DNA from: Patescibacteria group bacterium
GTDB lineage: Bacteria > Patescibacteriota > Patescibacteriia > Patescibacteriales > JAQTRU01
Reading direction: 5' to 3'
NCBI GenBank assembly: GCA_028716725.1
Contig: JAQUPG010000002.1
Span: 25,824 to 89,823 of the forward strand
Length of the DNA: 64,000 bases
Made by a program: the position numbers and the translations under genes. This document shows positions 1,221 through 56,612 of this stretch, one piece after another. A model generated the notes under the pieces. The model was not told the origin of the DNA. It did not search any database and saw nothing but the letters and a program-made list of their open reading frames with translations. The stretch's first letter is position 1, and each line of letters begins with the position of its first letter.

Positions 1221-1275
1221 AGTCGGGCTGCGCAGAATTGAACTGCGATTGCACGCACCCGAAGCGTGCGTAATA
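1221..1275 (-). terminator. GC-rich hairpin downstream of mscL (acgcacgcttcgggtgcgtgc-type stem)
   Basis: Inverted repeat gcacgcacccgaagcgtgcgt in an AT-rich spacer immediately after the mscL stop. Confidence 0.3.
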
Positions 1276-1305
1276 GCCTTTATACCACAGCCCGCTAATT
1301 TTTTA

Positions 1306-25177: not shown

Positions 25178-25266
25178 AATGGATGGCGCATAACTTAAAT
25201 AACGTTTTAATTATAAAACGTTAATAGGCTACGCGGTTCGTATTATGCGAAAATAAATTCCACTAA

Positions 25267-25643
25267 TATCAGGGCAAGCTATAAGCCGGATTCTGTTTAA
25301 ATAGTCATCTATCTAGTTCCGAAGTTACCCTCGGAATCAAGCGAGCCACTTTTTTCCCGCTCAAATGCTTTAGCATTCTGGAGTGGGATTTGCTCTTGCT
25401 TCAGACAGGGTTTACCGCGTCACTCTGTTACCAGAGGACGATCCAAGTAGCGTAAATTAAACGGATATCCGAGATCAATTTACACACCCTGGAACTTTTC
25501 ACGTTTGGTCCCGATTGCTCGGGACTAGTATAGTCTCTGTGGCACTTTCCCTAAGATTACTCTTGGTGGGCATTACCCACTGCCTTTTTAATGAAGTCCG
25601 GACTTTCCTCCCGCCCAAATTTTTGGGCGATTGACTATCCACT
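25267..25643 (-). ncRNA. rnpB: RNase P RNA (bacterial type A)
   Basis: Minus-strand reading shows P4 5' strand AGGAAAGTCCGGAC, GGGTAATGCC, GTGCCACAGAGA and P4 3' strand ACAGAATCCGGCTTATAG. P1 pairs tcagggtaagt with agcttgccctga. The P3 hairpin is cgcccaaaaatttgggcg. Confidence 0.8.
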
Positions 25644-25858
25644 TACCCTGATATTATTGAAATTTAAAGGACTAATTATACGAATAACATAGCACTTGAT
25701 AACTTAAAAGTCAATAAATTTACTATATTATATTTAATTTTAGCCAAATTTACTAAAAATAAATAAATTAAAAACCTTGACAAATTATAAATTATATGAT
25801 ATAAAGGAATGTTCAACATGCACCTTCAAAACCGAGAAAAAAACAACGAAACTCAGAT

Positions 25859-28032: not shown

Positions 28033-29199
28033 TTATTTTCTTATTTCATCCATTAACTCCATATAAAATTCCAAATTATTCAGACTCGCCAGTTTTGCTC
28101 CCAATGGCTCCCTTAATTTAAACAAGTGATGCAAATAAGCTTTGGAGTAATTGCGCAGTTCCGGCAGTTTGCTTTCCGAATTAATCGGACTAAAATCTCT
28201 AGCAAATTTAGCATTATTAATATTGACCGTCCGATAAAAATCTTTTGACATTTGCCTGCCCGCCGTAGCCTTGGCGAAGGCGGGGAATTTAGAATTTCTC
28301 TTCCAAAGGAAGAGTTTTCCATGCCTTCCTTCTCTTGTCGGAATTACGCAATCAAAAATATCCCAACCCATTTCTGCTGCCCGGACAATATCTTCCGGCA
28401 GGCCTATGCCCAGGCCAAAACGGATAGAATCTTTCGGGATTAAATCAGCCGTGAATTGCAAGACTTTTCCTAAAAACCTCCCGTCCTTATCAATTGGCCG
28501 GGCGCCGAAACCATAACCGTCAAACCCGATTTTTATCAATCCTTCCGCGCATTTTTTTCTTAAATCCAGTTCGGCTCCGCCCTGGATAACGCTAAAGAGT
28601 AACGGCCTCTCCCCTACTTTCATCTTCCTCCCCTTAACTTGCCTGTCATATTCCGCCCGGCACCTGGCGGCCCAGCTAATTGTGCGCTCTACTGATTTTT
28701 CTAAATCTTTTCGGCTAAATTCATTCGGCGGGCAATCATCCAAACAGACCATCATATCAACTCCTAAATCAAACTGGATTTGGATGGATTTTTCCGGAGT
28801 TAGCTCATGAGAAGAGCCGTCCAAAGGAGATTTAAAAATTACCCCCTTATCGCTTATCTTACCCATAGCCGGCTTCTTATGGACTAAGGAAAAAACCTGA
28901 AAGCCGCCACTGTCAGACAAAATCGGCCCGGACCAATTCATGAACTTATGGATGCCACCTTGCCTCGCCGAAGTACCACGAAGGCGGGTGGTTTTTTTTA
29001 TAATTTTCATCCCCGGCTGCAAATAAAGATGCAACGTGTTAACTACTAGGGCCTTAACCCCCATATTTTTTAGTTCTTCATTATCGGTAAGCTTAACAAA
29101 CCCCCTGGTCGCATCCGGCATAAAAAAAGGAGTCCTAATGCTCCCATGCGGTGTTTTTATTATTTTAGACTTTCCTCTTTTTATCCCCATTTCGTTCAT
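28033..29199 (-). CDS. tgt: queuine tRNA-ribosyltransferase
   Basis: TPHG..TP.FMP.AT N-terminus, the VMVCLDDC region and overall TGT length. Confidence 0.85.
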   Translation of the reverse strand: MNEMGIKRGKSKIIKTPHGSIRTPFFMPDATRGFVKLTDNEELKNMGVKALVVNTLHLYLQPGMKIIKKTTRLRGTSARQGGIHKFMNWSGPILSDSGGFQVFSLVHKKPAMGKISDKGVIFKSPLDGSSHELTPEKSIQIQFDLGVDMMVCLDDCPPNEFSRKDLEKSVERTISWAARCRAEYDRQVKGRKMKVGERPLLFSVIQGGAELDLRKKCAEGLIKIGFDGYGFGARPIDKDGRFLGKVLQFTADLIPKDSIRFGLGIGLPEDIVRAAEMGWDIFDCVIPTREGRHGKLFLWKRNSKFPAFAKATAGRQMSKDFYRTVNINNAKFARDFSPINSESKLPELRNYSKAYLHHLFKLREPLGAKLASLNNLEFYMELMDEIRK

Positions 29200-35645: not shown

Positions 35646-35721
35646 AATAAAATGAATGCTCTCTTATTTGAACATTCATTTTTTACTAAATATATACAAA
35701 TAAATATCCTTAAAAATCACC

Positions 35722-35872
35722 AAGGGGTTCGGGGGCCAAACCCCGCAATACTGGGGGGCAGGCTGAGCTAAGAATTGCTTGCCCGCCGAAGCTTTAGCGG
35801 AGGCGGGAGGCCCCCGAAACTTCCTGCCTGCCGGCAGGCAGGTTGCTTACTTTTGGTTACAAAAGTAAGTCC
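35722..35872. repeat. composite GC-rich structured element (gttcgggggcc ... ggcccccgaaac outer stem, the 24-mer palindrome, and a cttacttttg/caaaagtaag hairpin)
   Basis: Intergenic between parB and the GT4 gene. Shares the 24-mer exactly with 26994..27017. Confidence 0.5.
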
Positions 35873-36777: not shown

Positions 36778-36900
36778 AAATTTAAAAATCAAAATGTAAA
36801 ATTAAGGTATCGCGCTGCGCTCGCCTCGCTGAAGCTTCGGCGAAGCGGGCGCGATGAATTTTTAATTTTAAATTGTCATTTTGATTTTTGATTTTTACAT
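36778..36900. repeat. GC-rich hairpin (36808..36854, centred on gaagcttc) flanked by AT-rich inverted arms, in the parA-parB spacer
   Basis: atcgcgc...gcgcgat outer stem. The arms share aaaaatcaaaatg. It shares GCCTCGCTGAAG / CGAAGCGGG motifs with other GC elements. Confidence 0.45.
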
Positions 36901-37667: not shown

Positions 37668-37698
37668 ACGTACTAATATTATATATGAAAAAAAATTC

Positions 37699-37728
37699 TT
37701 TGACAATTTTTCTTACTTTCATTATACT
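37699..37728 (+). promoter_or_regulatory. consensus sigma-70-type promoter (TTGACA-18-TATACT) reading into the GC-rich element and tRNA-Leu
   Basis: Exact -35 and near-exact -10 hexamers with 18-nt spacing, read directly. Confidence 0.5.
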
Positions 37729-37747
37729 AAAAGCAGTTTCAAAAATA

Positions 37748-37857
37748 GGCCCTGGTGGCCCGCCTCCGTCCCGAGCGTCGGGACTTCGGCGAGGCAAGCG
37801 GAACTGGCATGCCTCGCTGAAACCGGGCTTCAGCTCGGCGAGGCCGGTAAACGCGCA
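37748..37857 (+). other. GC-rich structured element whose first 11 nt (gccctggtggc) and an internal gcggaactgg match the 5' end of the downstream tRNA-Leu. Candidate tRNA remnant, leader or small RNA.
   Basis: ~110 nt at ~68% GC in a ~40% GC genome. Internal hairpin cgaggca...tgcctcg and direct repeat tcggcgagg. Lies between the consensus promoter and tRNA-Leu. Confidence 0.4.
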
Positions 37858-37880
37858 CAATTAATTTAAAATACATTATA

Positions 37881-37964
37881 AGCCCTGGTGGCGGAACTGG
37901 TAGACGCGCACGACTCAAAATCGTGTGGACGCAAGTCCATGAGAGTTCGATTCTCTCCCTGGGC
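37881..37964 (+). tRNA. tRNA-Leu (anticodon CAA), type II with long variable arm, no encoded CCA
   Basis: Anticodon stem-loop cacga-ctCAAaa-tcgtg, variable arm tggacgcaagtcca, T-arm gagag-ttcgatt-ctctc, acceptor gccctgg/cctgggc with one T-T mismatch. Confidence 0.8.
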
Positions 37965-38068
37965 ACGGATAATTTAAGATTTCAGATTCTAGAATTCAGA
38001 ATAAAAACAAACACAAAATCACAAGCCAAAACCAAGGGGGGGGTATTGGCTTTTTTGTTCATTGAGAA

Positions 38069-49037: not shown

Positions 49038-50483
49038 CTATTTCTTCATTTCTATTTTAATCCGATCCGCTAAATTCGGCACTTTATCTATAAAAGACGG
49101 GAAGAAATTAATTTCATAGCCGGCGATTTCCTTAAAGCCGCTTAAATAATCTTCTAATTGGGCGCGGGTTAAATTAACGATTTTCTGCCGGTCAATGATA
49201 TCGGCCCCGCCTTTTAAGCTCATTTTCCCCTCAAAAGTAGCATTAACCGTTGCCCGGCCCGTTTCTAGGTCAAAATTATTTAAAGTGTAATTTATCTCTT
49301 CGGGCTTAAATTCTATCAATTCCTTATTATCCGGCACTACTTCTTCTAATTTTCCTTTAGCCATTTTTCCGGCTTCGTCGCCGGAGAAAGCGACAATCGT
49401 TACCATCGCCTTCATGCTGACATCGAATTTATCCTTCTCTTCGCCCACCTTACCGTTGACCTCGGTGCTGATGGTATTTTCATCGACGCTGTAAATAACT
49501 TCATTATAACCCTTATAATTTTCCCCTAGTTCGTTTTTCGCTTTTTCCAAAAGGCTTCTTTTTAAATCCTTAATCGCCTGGTCAATGTCCGATTGCTGAA
49601 TATATTTTTTTGCCTGCTGCCCATAAACGAATTTCTCTTTGCTTTCCGCATAAATCTTATCCTGCAACCCGGCCCATAATCCCGGAATGGTGAATTTCGT
49701 CGGGCCGATAGCCATATCCGCGCTCACCTCATCGGCGTATATTTCCACTTCCTGCGACCCGCCTGCCGGCACATTGATTGTGTTTTTTATCCGGAAAAGT
49801 TTATTGTCCGGAGACAGCAATCTCGTTGTCGCCACCAAGGGCTGATTCTTATTGTAATTATTTATAACCGTAACCTTTCCGGTCACTTCTTCGCCGATCT
49901 TTTCCGACCCGCTGGCGGAATAGGTATTTTTTTCCTCAATGCTGGTTTGTTCCACGATGCCGGTTAACGATTTCCCCGGTACGGCCGGCTCGCTCCCGTT
50001 TCCATAGATATCTATAGCCAAACTGTCGCTTAATCTTTCCTGCGCCGGTATTAAAACAATATTTAACTTTACAAAAGAAAAATAAAAAATAACACCTAGC
50101 AAAACAACGGTTAAAACAATAAAACTCACGGCTATTTTTCGGTATAAATTTATTTTTGGGGAATTCATATTTTTTTTCGCCTCTTTTCCGGCCGGTCCGC
50201 CCAAACTCGGCGAAGCTGAGACAGCCTCGCTCGCCTTACTTTGCCTGCCTCGCTCTGCGGGCAAGGCTGGCGGCCGAAGCGGGCTTGGTTCTAATTTTTT
50301 AAAATTTTTATTCTGCTTTTTAAAGTTATAGCCAGTATTAACTGCAGAGGAAGAAGACGGCCGGAGAACTTTACCTATTTTGGGGAGAGGCTTAGCCTCT
50401 TTTTCAATAATTACAGGAACGACCTCTTTTTTGGCTTTATCTGGGAGAGAAGATTTCCCTGTTTTTTTCTTCGCTCTTGGCAT
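49038..50483 (-). CDS. hypothetical membrane-anchored protein (Lys/Pro-rich N-terminus, one TM, large extracytoplasmic domain)
   Basis: 481 aa. The N-terminal region includes a GC-rich in-frame segment. Confidence 0.5.
   Translation of the reverse strand: MPRAKKKTGKSSLPDKAKKEVVPVIIEKEAKPLPKIGKVLRPSSSSAVNTGYNFKKQNKNFKKLEPSPLRPPALPAERGRQSKASEAVSASPSLGGPAGKEAKKNMNSPKINLYRKIAVSFIVLTVVLLGVIFYFSFVKLNIVLIPAQERLSDSLAIDIYGNGSEPAVPGKSLTGIVEQTSIEEKNTYSASGSEKIGEEVTGKVTVINNYNKNQPLVATTRLLSPDNKLFRIKNTINVPAGGSQEVEIYADEVSADMAIGPTKFTIPGLWAGLQDKIYAESKEKFVYGQQAKKYIQQSDIDQAIKDLKRSLLEKAKNELGENYKGYNEVIYSVDENTISTEVNGKVGEEKDKFDVSMKAMVTIVAFSGDEAGKMAKGKLEEVVPDNKELIEFKPEEINYTLNNFDLETGRATVNATFEGKMSLKGGADIIDRQKIVNLTRAQLEDYLSGFKEIAGYEINFFPSFIDKVPNLADRIKIEMKK
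50180..50295. repeat. GC-rich repeat-family element in frame within the 481-aa gene
   Basis: ~115 nt at ~68% GC encoding LRPPALPAERGRQSKASEAVSASPSLGGPAGKEA. Shares CTCGGCGAAG, GCCTCGCT and GCCGAAGCGGGC motifs with the intergenic elements at 36808 and 37748. Confidence 0.5.
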
Positions 50484-55205: not shown

Positions 55206-56612
55206 TCAATTCTTCATCTCTTCCAGCTTCACCTTAACTTCCTTGTTTTCACCCTTATGCAAAATCTTTAAAGTAATTTCATCTCCGACTTTAAATTTGC
55301 CGATCGCTGAAGACAGAGGATTATTGGCGTCAATTTTTTTGCCGTTTACTTCCAGAATAATATCATTTTCCGCTAACCCGGCTTTATCCGCTGGTGAACC
55401 AGGAATAACGGCCAAATCAGTCCGGTTTTCTCCCCGGACAATCAGGGCGCCGTAATCAACGCTTAATTTATTAGCATCAGCTATAGATTTATCAACCAAA
55501 ACATATCTTACCCCCAGCCAAGGCCTGACAATCCGGCCGTTTTTCTTAACGCTTTCAATCGTGTCTTTTAAATCATTAATCGGAATAGCAAAGCCGATAT
55601 TCTGGGCGTTCTGCGCGATGGCGGTATTTATGCCAATTACCTGGCCGGCCAGATTAAGCAACGGACCGCCGGAATTGCCGGAATTAATAGAGGCATCAGT
55701 CTGGATAACGCCGCTTAATTGTTCGCTTCCTAACCCGATCCCGCCGGCGGTAATTGAGCGGGACAAGCCGGAAATTACCCCGGTCGAAACCGTATTCCTG
55801 AATTCGCCCAAAGCATTGCCGATAGCGATGACAGTCTGCCCGACTTTTAAATTGCTTGAATCTCCTAATTCCACCGTCGGAAATTTTTCTCCCTCGCCCG
55901 CCGAAGCTTTGGCGGAGGCGGGCTCAATCTTTAAGACGGCTAAATCGGTGGCCGGATCCCGGGCCAAAACTTTCGCTTCATGTTTTGTTTCATCATTCAT
56001 TAAAACCGTATATTCCGCTTCTTCATCAAGAACCACGTGCTTGTTGGTGACTATATAACCGTCGGAAGAAACAATAAAGCCGGTGCCGCCCCCTATTTCC
56101 TGTTTCGTTGTGCCGTTCTGTTTTTGCTTCGGCGCAGGCGGATTGGCATTGGGGCCGAACAATTCATCAAAATTATCGCCGAAAAATTGGCGCAAAAAAT
56201 CGTCCCCAAAAGAATTATTATAATACTGTTCAACCGTGGGCAAATCCTTGCTGATAATAATGCTGACTACGGCCGGTGAAACTTTTTCCGCAGCCGTAAT
56301 AACGCCCGACTCCTCCTCTACTTTTACGATTTTCTCCCCCTGGTTTGCGCTTCCCTCTAACCCAGAACCAGCCGGCTGGCCGGTAGCAACCCCCTTTAAC
56401 CAGCTAAATAAATTAAATTGGGCGGCAGACGATACCGTGCCGGCCCAAAAACCCATTGCTCCCCCAAAAACAGAACTAACTATCATGGAAGAAACAATAA
56501 TGGTTATAAAAGTCTTCTTAAAATTGTTCTCCATATTAATTTTAGGATAAGGATGGGGAAAGATATCCTTTTTATATAATATAATACGAATTAAACCGCT
56601 TTCTGCTTTCAC
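55206..56612 (-). CDS. htrA: HtrA/DegP-family serine protease with PDZ domain
   Basis: Trypsin-like triad context and GNSGGPLLN. C-terminal PDZ. N-terminal TM anchor. Confidence 0.85.
   Translation of the reverse strand: MKAESGLIRIILYKKDIFPHPYPKINMENNFKKTFITIIVSSMIVSSVFGGAMGFWAGTVSSAAQFNLFSWLKGVATGQPAGSGLEGSANQGEKIVKVEEESGVITAAEKVSPAVVSIIISKDLPTVEQYYNNSFGDDFLRQFFGDNFDELFGPNANPPAPKQKQNGTTKQEIGGGTGFIVSSDGYIVTNKHVVLDEEAEYTVLMNDETKHEAKVLARDPATDLAVLKIEPASAKASAGEGEKFPTVELGDSSNLKVGQTVIAIGNALGEFRNTVSTGVISGLSRSITAGGIGLGSEQLSGVIQTDASINSGNSGGPLLNLAGQVIGINTAIAQNAQNIGFAIPINDLKDTIESVKKNGRIVRPWLGVRYVLVDKSIADANKLSVDYGALIVRGENRTDLAVIPGSPADKAGLAENDIILEVNGKKIDANNPLSSAIGKFKVGDEITLKILHKGENKEVKVKLEEMKN

Follow-up and report, generated by a model that had tools for sequence, protein, structure and literature searches.

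A probable truncated copy of tRNA-Leu(CAA), split by two GC-rich inserts, in the leader of the intact gene of a Patescibacteria bacterium

The GC-rich element at positions 37748-37858 of the window (the whole 64,000-nucleotide stretch of Patescibacteria DNA that was analysed) probably derives from the adjacent tRNA-Leu(CAA) gene: it would be a pseudo-copy truncated to the first 30 nt, interrupted by two GC-rich inserts and lying in a pre-tRNA leader without dedicated function. It consists of tRNA pieces and of inserts, the first of which is a clear member of a dispersed hairpin-repeat family; it occupies the former place of the tRNA behind the ancestral promoter, and most relatives lack it. 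The element is thus neither a distinct RNA gene nor a conserved small RNA, but a chimera of tRNA pieces and dispersed repeat. For annotation, a tempting but false sRNA and a false island boundary are removed, since the top GC and structure signal of the window consists of repeat DNA together with a tRNA relic. Interest in the element as such is modest; the main value for follow-up lies in the cross-lineage repeat and its steady presence in tRNA-Leu fragments.

Composition of the element and its place in the tRNA-Leu locus

Read 5' to 3' on the plus strand, the element begins with a copy of tRNA-Leu positions 1-10 (37749..37758, GCCCTGGTGG; the acceptor 5' strand, U8, G9 and G10), followed by a first 40-nt insert (37759..37798), a copy of positions 11-19 (37799..37807, CGGAACTGG; D stem and D loop), a second GC-rich insert, likewise of 40 nt (37808..37847), and a copy of positions 20-30 (37848..37858, TAaACGCGCAC, 1 mismatch) which stops within the anticodon stem, in its 5' strand. 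An AT-rich spacer of 23 nt (37859..37881, AATTAATTTAAAATACATTATAA) then leads to the intact gene. Once the two inserts are excised, the intervals 37749-37758, 37799-37807 and 37848-37858 join into tRNA-Leu(CAA) positions 1-30 with 29 of the 30 nucleotides identical. The inserts lie after tRNA positions 10 and 19, and neither requires a target duplication to be explained.

The original prediction, which had overlooked the third collinear block, was right that the first 11 nt (GCCCTGGTGGC, at 37749) and an internal 10-nt word (GCGGAACTGG, at 37798) are shared with the tRNA, each being found in the window solely in the element and in tRNA-Leu; the internal word corresponds, however, to tRNA positions 10-19 and not 12-21. 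Since isolated tRNA matches of 10-11 nt arise by chance elsewhere in the window, the weight rests on collinearity: the element and the tRNA share a 29-nt collinear chain of exact matches, a length reached by 0 of 20,000 composition-preserving shuffles (maximum 28). The interval 37748-37857 was also correctly described as GC-rich, with a GC content of 71% rather than about 68%, and it is the top GC peak of the window (mean 41.6%).

Insert 1 is a full copy of the hairpin repeat (CCCGCCTCCG-TCCCGAGCGTCGGGA-CTTCGGCGAGGCAAG), matching our covariance model of the family, R1, over its full length (46.1 bits, E 4e-13). Insert 2 carries the same motif, as judged by motif match and fold, in inverted (GCCTCGCTGAA) and direct (TCGGCGAGGC) form, and it scores 7.2 bits (E 3.6, minus strand) with a 15-mer match containing 3 mismatches; from its sequence it would appear to be a degenerate, motif-related relative of insert 1 and not a significant family member. 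The predicted internal repeat, TCGGCGAGG, does occur twice, at 37786 and 37835. Both this repetition and the strong predicted fold of the element (-59.9 kcal/mol, z = -3.5) are explained by the relation of insert 2 to insert 1, the fold arising because insert 2 carries the inverted insert 1 motif, so that the inserts pair together; in the predicted structure this pairing makes a long middle hairpin with the D-loop remnant at its tip. The element sequence is identical in two independent Patescibacteria bacterium metagenome-assembled genome (MAG) assemblies, GCA_028712785.1 and GCA_028713775.1, and is therefore not an assembly artefact. No CDS is called in the element interval in the MAG annotations; a coding function was considered and rejected, the mechanical ORFs there being uncalled and merely traversing repeat DNA.

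The orthologous locus was compared in nine distinct relatives, with ParA identities of 77-96% to the protein of the window. This comparison, which the original prediction had proposed as a check, yielded the intact site: in four relatives (L005, L221, L222 and L225) tRNA-Leu position 1 follows immediately on the same promoter and a homologous leader of 20 nt ('AAAACAGTTT.CA.AAA.AG'). As promoter and leader abut the tRNA in these genomes, the window fragment sits at the ancestral tRNA position, and the intact tRNA-Leu is displaced 133 nt downstream of it. The element is absent from 8 of the 9 relatives, including the closest one, L089 (parA 86% nucleotide identity), which has the same derived acceptor stem GCCCTGG without the fragment. 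L091, L224, L006 and L009 are likewise devoid of it, and other leader insertions are found instead in L089, L091 and L224.

Only one relative, L094, which belongs to a different sub-clade (parA 79% nucleotide identity), has a homologous 5' fragment in the same place. It is shorter, with the layout (G)TCGAAGTGG, repeat unit, CGGAATTGGT, then a 48-nt spacer and the tRNA; its repeat unit occupies the same 10|11 site as insert 1 of the window, and its fragment blocks match L094's own tRNA (GCCGAAG, GGAATTGG). The ends of the 23-nt spacer of the window resemble those of the 48-nt spacer of L094, as compared by eye in low-complexity sequence. The shared spacer ends and the shared unit site suggest one origin for the two fragments, and the patchy distribution together with the lineage-specific tRNA blocks suggests recurrence or conversion. 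A separate feature of the locus is a 23S_rRNA_IVP family gene next to parA (encoding a four-helix bundle, presumably Avd-like), located between parA and parB in L005, L091, L221 and L222 and upstream of parA in L094; the parA-parB spacer of the window has just a hairpin unit where relatives have this gene.

Transcription and folding of the tRNA-Leu precursor

The near-consensus promoter upstream of the element was correctly predicted, apart from its spacer: a sigma-70-type TTGACA-17-TATACT site at 37700..37728 (+) matches the consensus at 11 of 12 positions, with 17 nt and not 18 between the boxes. A divergent parA promoter on the minus strand (TTGTCA-17-TATAAT, 37706-37678), also with 11 of 12 matches, overlaps it at the -35 boxes, the pair spanning 37678-37728. 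The intact tRNA-Leu(CAA), a type II tRNA whose CCA is not encoded, occupies 37882..37966 (+) (ARAGORN; Rfam tRNA, 53.1 bits) and has a U5-U68 acceptor-stem mismatch, the same as in L089. The tRNA-Leu genes of L091 and L225 have an A6-C67 acceptor mismatch, and the 3' fragments in these two relatives copy C67. Downstream, a probable intrinsic terminator was identified by eye at 38025..38056 (+) (GCCAAAACC-AAGGGGGG-GGTATTGGC, then TTTTTT); the terminator scan missed it because of an internal mismatch in the stem. An equivalent hairpin and T-run, again recognised by eye, is conserved 3' of tRNA-Leu in L089, L091, L094 and L225.

The promoter scan found no second promoter-like site between 37728 and tRNA-Leu. 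The intact tRNA has no promoter of its own, the sole promoter-like site lying upstream of the element, and transcription must therefore read through the element. No terminator-like site occurs on the plus strand within 37748-37881, where the structure is succeeded by TAAACGCGCACAATT and not by a T-run. The ancestral promoter would thus drive transcription through the element into tRNA-Leu, producing a 5' leader of about 147 nt (37735..37881, +; start estimated from the -10 box). RNase P would then cut at 37881/37882, before G37882, and free the leader as a passive by-product without dedicated function; the same window encodes a type A RNase P RNA (25266-25650, 214 bits). Of the two roles originally offered for a transcript of the element, we infer that of a co-transcribed leader removed by RNase P, given that the only detectable promoter lies upstream and that RNase P RNA is encoded in the window; that of a small RNA is at odds with its absence from 8 of 9 relatives. 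The arrangement of promoter, leader and tRNA, with type A RNase P RNA in the same window, is that of ordinary pre-tRNAs, from which the leader differs in its length (about 147 nt versus about 20 nt in relatives), in its high degree of structure, and in holding a duplicate of the acceptor 5' strand able to mispair with the tRNA 3' end.

This duplicate bears on the folding of the precursor. In equilibrium partition-function calculations, the acceptor strand of the fragment pairs with the tRNA 3' strand at a probability of 0.67-0.86, versus 0.04-0.05 for the genuine stem, a prediction that would be expected for any duplicated strand and that ignores co-transcriptional folding and tRNA tertiary contacts. 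The minimum free energy (MFE) structure of the precursor contains the same fragment-to-3'-strand pairing, and with the fragment removed the genuine acceptor stem forms at 0.94-1.0. The predicted mispairing leaves room for a cost or a regulatory effect, so that the arrangement may not be neutral; a compact, AT-rich Patescibacteria genome tolerates a tRNA precursor with a competing duplicate of its own acceptor strand.

These predictions speak in favour of the alternative that the leader is a regulatory decoy, the copied 5' acceptor strand competing for the tRNA 3' strand and thereby tuning or gating tRNA-Leu(CAA) maturation, with the 3' fragments of relatives as its mirror image. In addition, the blocks of the fragments change along with the tRNA of their own locus, being GCCCTGG in the window and (G)TCGAAG in L094, where the C2->U change would keep a U-G pair, and the 13-nt 3' fragments of L005, L222, L091 and L225 equal the local tRNA 3' end despite diverged AT-rich flanks. 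Two lineages differ from each other at three acceptor-stem positions, and in each the fragment blocks equal the local tRNA; such blocks follow it at the polymorphic positions, namely 4-6 in 5' fragments and 67 (C/T) in 3' fragments. A neutral relic would be expected to drift, and this identity counts against reading the fragments as neutral relics. Nevertheless, two lineages are far too few for covariation, and a recent duplication or short-patch conversion accounts for the identity equally well. Neither fragment is conserved: of 10 lineages, 2 have the 5' fragment and about 4 have the 3' fragment. Any duplicated strand would, moreover, give the same fold. We therefore regard a decoy function as rather unlikely, and prefer the truncated tRNA copy in a passive leader.

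Origin of the fragment and of its inserts

The partial duplication could have arisen in two ways: as the scar left at the tRNA by a site-specific integration, with later deletion of the cargo, or through the decay of a locally duplicated tRNA end. In either case, the hairpin repeats would have colonised the non-essential copy afterwards. The original proposal of a displaced 5' part of the tRNA stands in so far as the element is derived from tRNA-Leu, whether duplicated or displaced.

R1 has five significant matches in 44 kb from the loci of relatives, every one of them inside a tRNA-Leu fragment, namely the 5' fragment of L094 and the 3' fragments of L005, L222, L091 and L225. The 3' fragments take the form GATTC, a unit in reverse orientation, and CCTCC(C/T)TCGGCAC; in the 3' fragment of L094 this site is occupied by another GC hairpin (CCTGCCTACCGGCAGGCAGG). 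Every tRNA-Leu fragment examined in the clade contains a GC hairpin, and none is without one. In all cases, when the appropriate strand is read, what flanks the unit on its left is the acceptor 7-mer followed by 3-4 nt that end in GG. Although the central segment is otherwise hypervariable, insert 1 of the window and the 3'-fragment unit of L091 and L225 have the same central hairpin (GTCCCGAGCGTCGGGAC).

This association may have several reasons: the fragments may be the only GC-rich patches that AT-rich spacers offer, and the repeat may prefer them; direct repeats without an interruption may be lost fast by slippage, so that only interrupted ones survive; or the hairpin may take part in the process that creates the fragments. 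The boldest reading is that an undescribed, multi-phylum mobile repeat lodges in copies of tRNA-Leu ends about 10-11 nt from the acceptor end, on either strand, and that the resulting modules are kept identical by conversion or selection and act on tRNA-Leu maturation or locus stability. We hold this to be quite unlikely; if true, the element would not be a scar but would function within a system linked to the tRNA. Among 98 units, the window and L094 tRNA cases alone have an uninterrupted copy of the insertion site nearby. With just 2 of 98 units, duplication is not a property of the repeat, and the idea that its insertion generally duplicates the target was dropped. A general link between the repeat and tRNA genes was also rejected: of 80 units among the metagenome matches listed, 3 have a tRNA within 400 nt, by our estimate about the level of chance, and none of these three has tRNA fragments. 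At 1522-1627 of one metagenome contig (L117), a unit directly adjoins the CCA end, here encoded, of a gene for tRNA-Gly(CCC).

As for integration at the tRNA, the Islander collection comprises 3,919 islands, 159 with 5' tDNA fragments and 3,760 with 3' fragments, and its crossovers have either the anticodon loop or the T-stem/acceptor junction as their centre (PMC4383910). The present locus resembles such attachment sites in having a partial tDNA copy beside the intact gene, in direct orientation and on the correct side (positions 1-30 upstream, same strand), with end points near the two crossover classes, namely position 30 as the last one of the window fragment and the T-stem/acceptor-stem junction as the start of the 3' fragments in relatives. 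It differs in belonging to the rare 5' class, in bearing two GC-rich inserts, and in what separates fragment and tRNA, where an Islander island has an integrase and at least 2 kb of DNA; here the interval is the 23-nt spacer, with no ORF and neither integrase nor cargo. Moreover, element-free relatives do not lack the flanked genes, parA and pur still flanking the tRNA.

The same evidence bears on the proposal that the fragment marks the junction of a pur islet, that is, that it is the tRNA end displaced when a purB-purE-purC block integrated at tRNA-Leu. An upstream 5' tDNA fragment in the same orientation is a legitimate island configuration (159 of 3,919 Islander islands, PMC4383910), and the end of the fragment at position 30 is near the anticodon-centred crossover class. 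The pur genes, however, lie downstream of the intact tRNA and outside the repeat pair, the fragment being on the parA side; 23 nt alone, with no integrase or cargo, separate fragment and tRNA; and beyond the pur genes and purC there is no tRNA-Leu 3' fragment, only chance matches of 9-10 nt. The pur genes are also syntenic in relatives that lack this fragment: the order parA, tRNA-Leu, pur (parA divergent from the other two) is found in L005, L006, L089, L091 and L225, which are all element-free, and it is kept in relatives that do have fragments, so that this order is ancestral and the element is no pur islet boundary. We consider this origin very improbable.

Equally far-fetched is a stand-alone structured small RNA (divergent SRP, 6S or tRNA-like) with its own promoter and an accidental likeness to tRNA: the upstream promoter is strong, the fold is stable and the element is the top GC island of the window, but the promoter is the tRNA's own in relatives, the stability stems from the pairing of two repeat-motif copies, no terminator follows the element, and 8 of 9 distinct relatives lack it. 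The original prediction had set an assignment to a known RNA family by a covariance model as its refutation, and no such assignment was obtained, since none of the Rfam 15 models, tRNA (RF00005) included, matches 37748-37858 at E<=10. The best overlapping scores are chance-level eukaryotic families (<=20 bits versus gathering scores of 45-100), and divergent SRP or 6S RNA was dropped on this ground. ARAGORN detects the intact gene only; the element holds positions 1-30 alone and not a complete cloverleaf.

The hairpin-repeat family

The original prediction also mentioned motifs shared with other GC-rich elements, and the family is real: the 15-mer CTTCGGCGAGGCAAG, allowing <=3 mismatches, has 10 sites in the window versus 1.3 expected. 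Family members have the form CCCGCC-UYC-[variable stem-loop]-UUC-GGCGAGG-CAAG, for which we propose an outer stem CCCGCC/GGCG(A)GG, a 3x3 internal loop (UYC/UUC), a variable inner stem-loop and a CAAG tail. The search pattern CCCGCYTYCG-N(3-30)-CTYCRGCGAGGCRAG matched the window twice, versus 0 matches in 100 shuffles. A variant of this pattern (A or T allowed at one position) gave at least 120 matches in metagenome contigs and 6 in viral contigs. The GC content of the contigs at 80 loci examined among the metagenome matches listed ranges from 33 to 73%, which indicates that many unrelated lineages carry the repeat; its arms are nearly invariant across this range. Rfam has no family corresponding to the repeat, and in full-text literature searches neither the motif sequence nor related concepts led to a description of it. 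A hairpin of 30-45 nt that sits in frame within essential genes such as tgt deserves a census if it is truly undescribed; in many metagenome-assembled genomes it can be expected to give rise to false ORFs, false 'structured RNAs' and unusual loops in proteins.

A comparison of 77 distinct units shows the central segment to be a hairpin whose sequence varies. Of 52 units, 44 form the second pair of the inner stem, with five pair types (shuffle mean 22.8), and in a 62-sequence alignment (A1) 95.5% of cells pair versus 89.8% in shuffles, with 39 double-sided changes versus 12. The outer-stem pair C6-G26 is changed to U-A in two units. All 62 aligned copies start with CCCGCC and finish with GGCAAG. 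Units in AT-rich contigs lie within long open frames, 11 in sense and 8 in antisense orientation, and this lack of strand bias points to a DNA-level element and argues against an RNA motif. In two metagenome contigs of 33-36% GC, a unit occupies the same site of what seems to be the same gene (L102, 3244-3284; L119, 2362-2402), and the inner stems differ by compensatory changes (CCACGT..ACGTGG versus CCGCGT..ACGCGG). Head-to-tail arrays were seen at six loci (L095, L114, L126, L129, L137 and L150), in which the inter-unit junction GGCG(A)GG-CAAG-CCCGCC can fold as a hairpin.

The repeat resembles REP, BIME and REPIN sequences in being a short (30-45 nt), GC-rich, imperfect palindrome that is dispersed, sometimes tandem and intergenic, with compensatory changes preserving the hairpin. 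REP sequences, however, are lineage-specific, and in those of the GTAG and CGTC super-families one end of the palindrome is marked by the conserved tetranucleotide GTAG or CGTC; the present repeat starts with CCCGCC and ends with GGCAAG, with neither head, its arms are near-identical across contigs of 33-73% GC, and many copies are inside ORFs in either orientation. Rickettsia palindromic elements (RPE) are about 100-150 bp long and confined to Rickettsia, and mitochondrial GC clusters are organellar. Like these, the repeat comprises GC-rich hairpins invading AT-rich compact genomes, in frame in protein genes (two in tgt) and near or inside RNA genes; unlike them it measures 30-45 nt and occurs in many lineages, and the sequences are unrelated.

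Six copies were called in the window by R1 at E<1e-5. In addition to insert 1, two units (28959-28988 and 28255-28284) lie in frame inside the tgt ORF (28033-29199, minus strand), which we take to encode a queuine tRNA-ribosyltransferase-like protein, and translate as ...TTRLRGTSARQGG... and ...PAFAKATAGRQ...; one lies below parB (35778-35807, minus strand, 40 bits), one in the parB-parA spacer (36820-36849, where both strands score, at 32 and 17 bits), and one inside the ORF at 55206-56612 (55893-55922, minus strand, 34.8 bits). Three full units and insert 2 are thus found within 2.1 kb around parAB and tRNA-Leu. Outside these calls, ARAGORN places a tRNA-Pro(CGG) at 1222-1294 (minus strand) which the Rfam tRNA model does not report at its gathering score, and a 70% GC patch at 50168-50301, near the 5' end of the ORF at 49038-50483 (minus strand), has weak R1 matches only (12.7 bits) and may be intergenic if the true start codon is further downstream. 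The GC-rich intergenic block below parB (35700-35860) combines its R1 unit with a perfect palindrome, CCTGCCTGCCGGCAGGCAGG (35823-35842), which represents a second hairpin family, one with copies in the L091 leader and in the L094 3' fragment as well.
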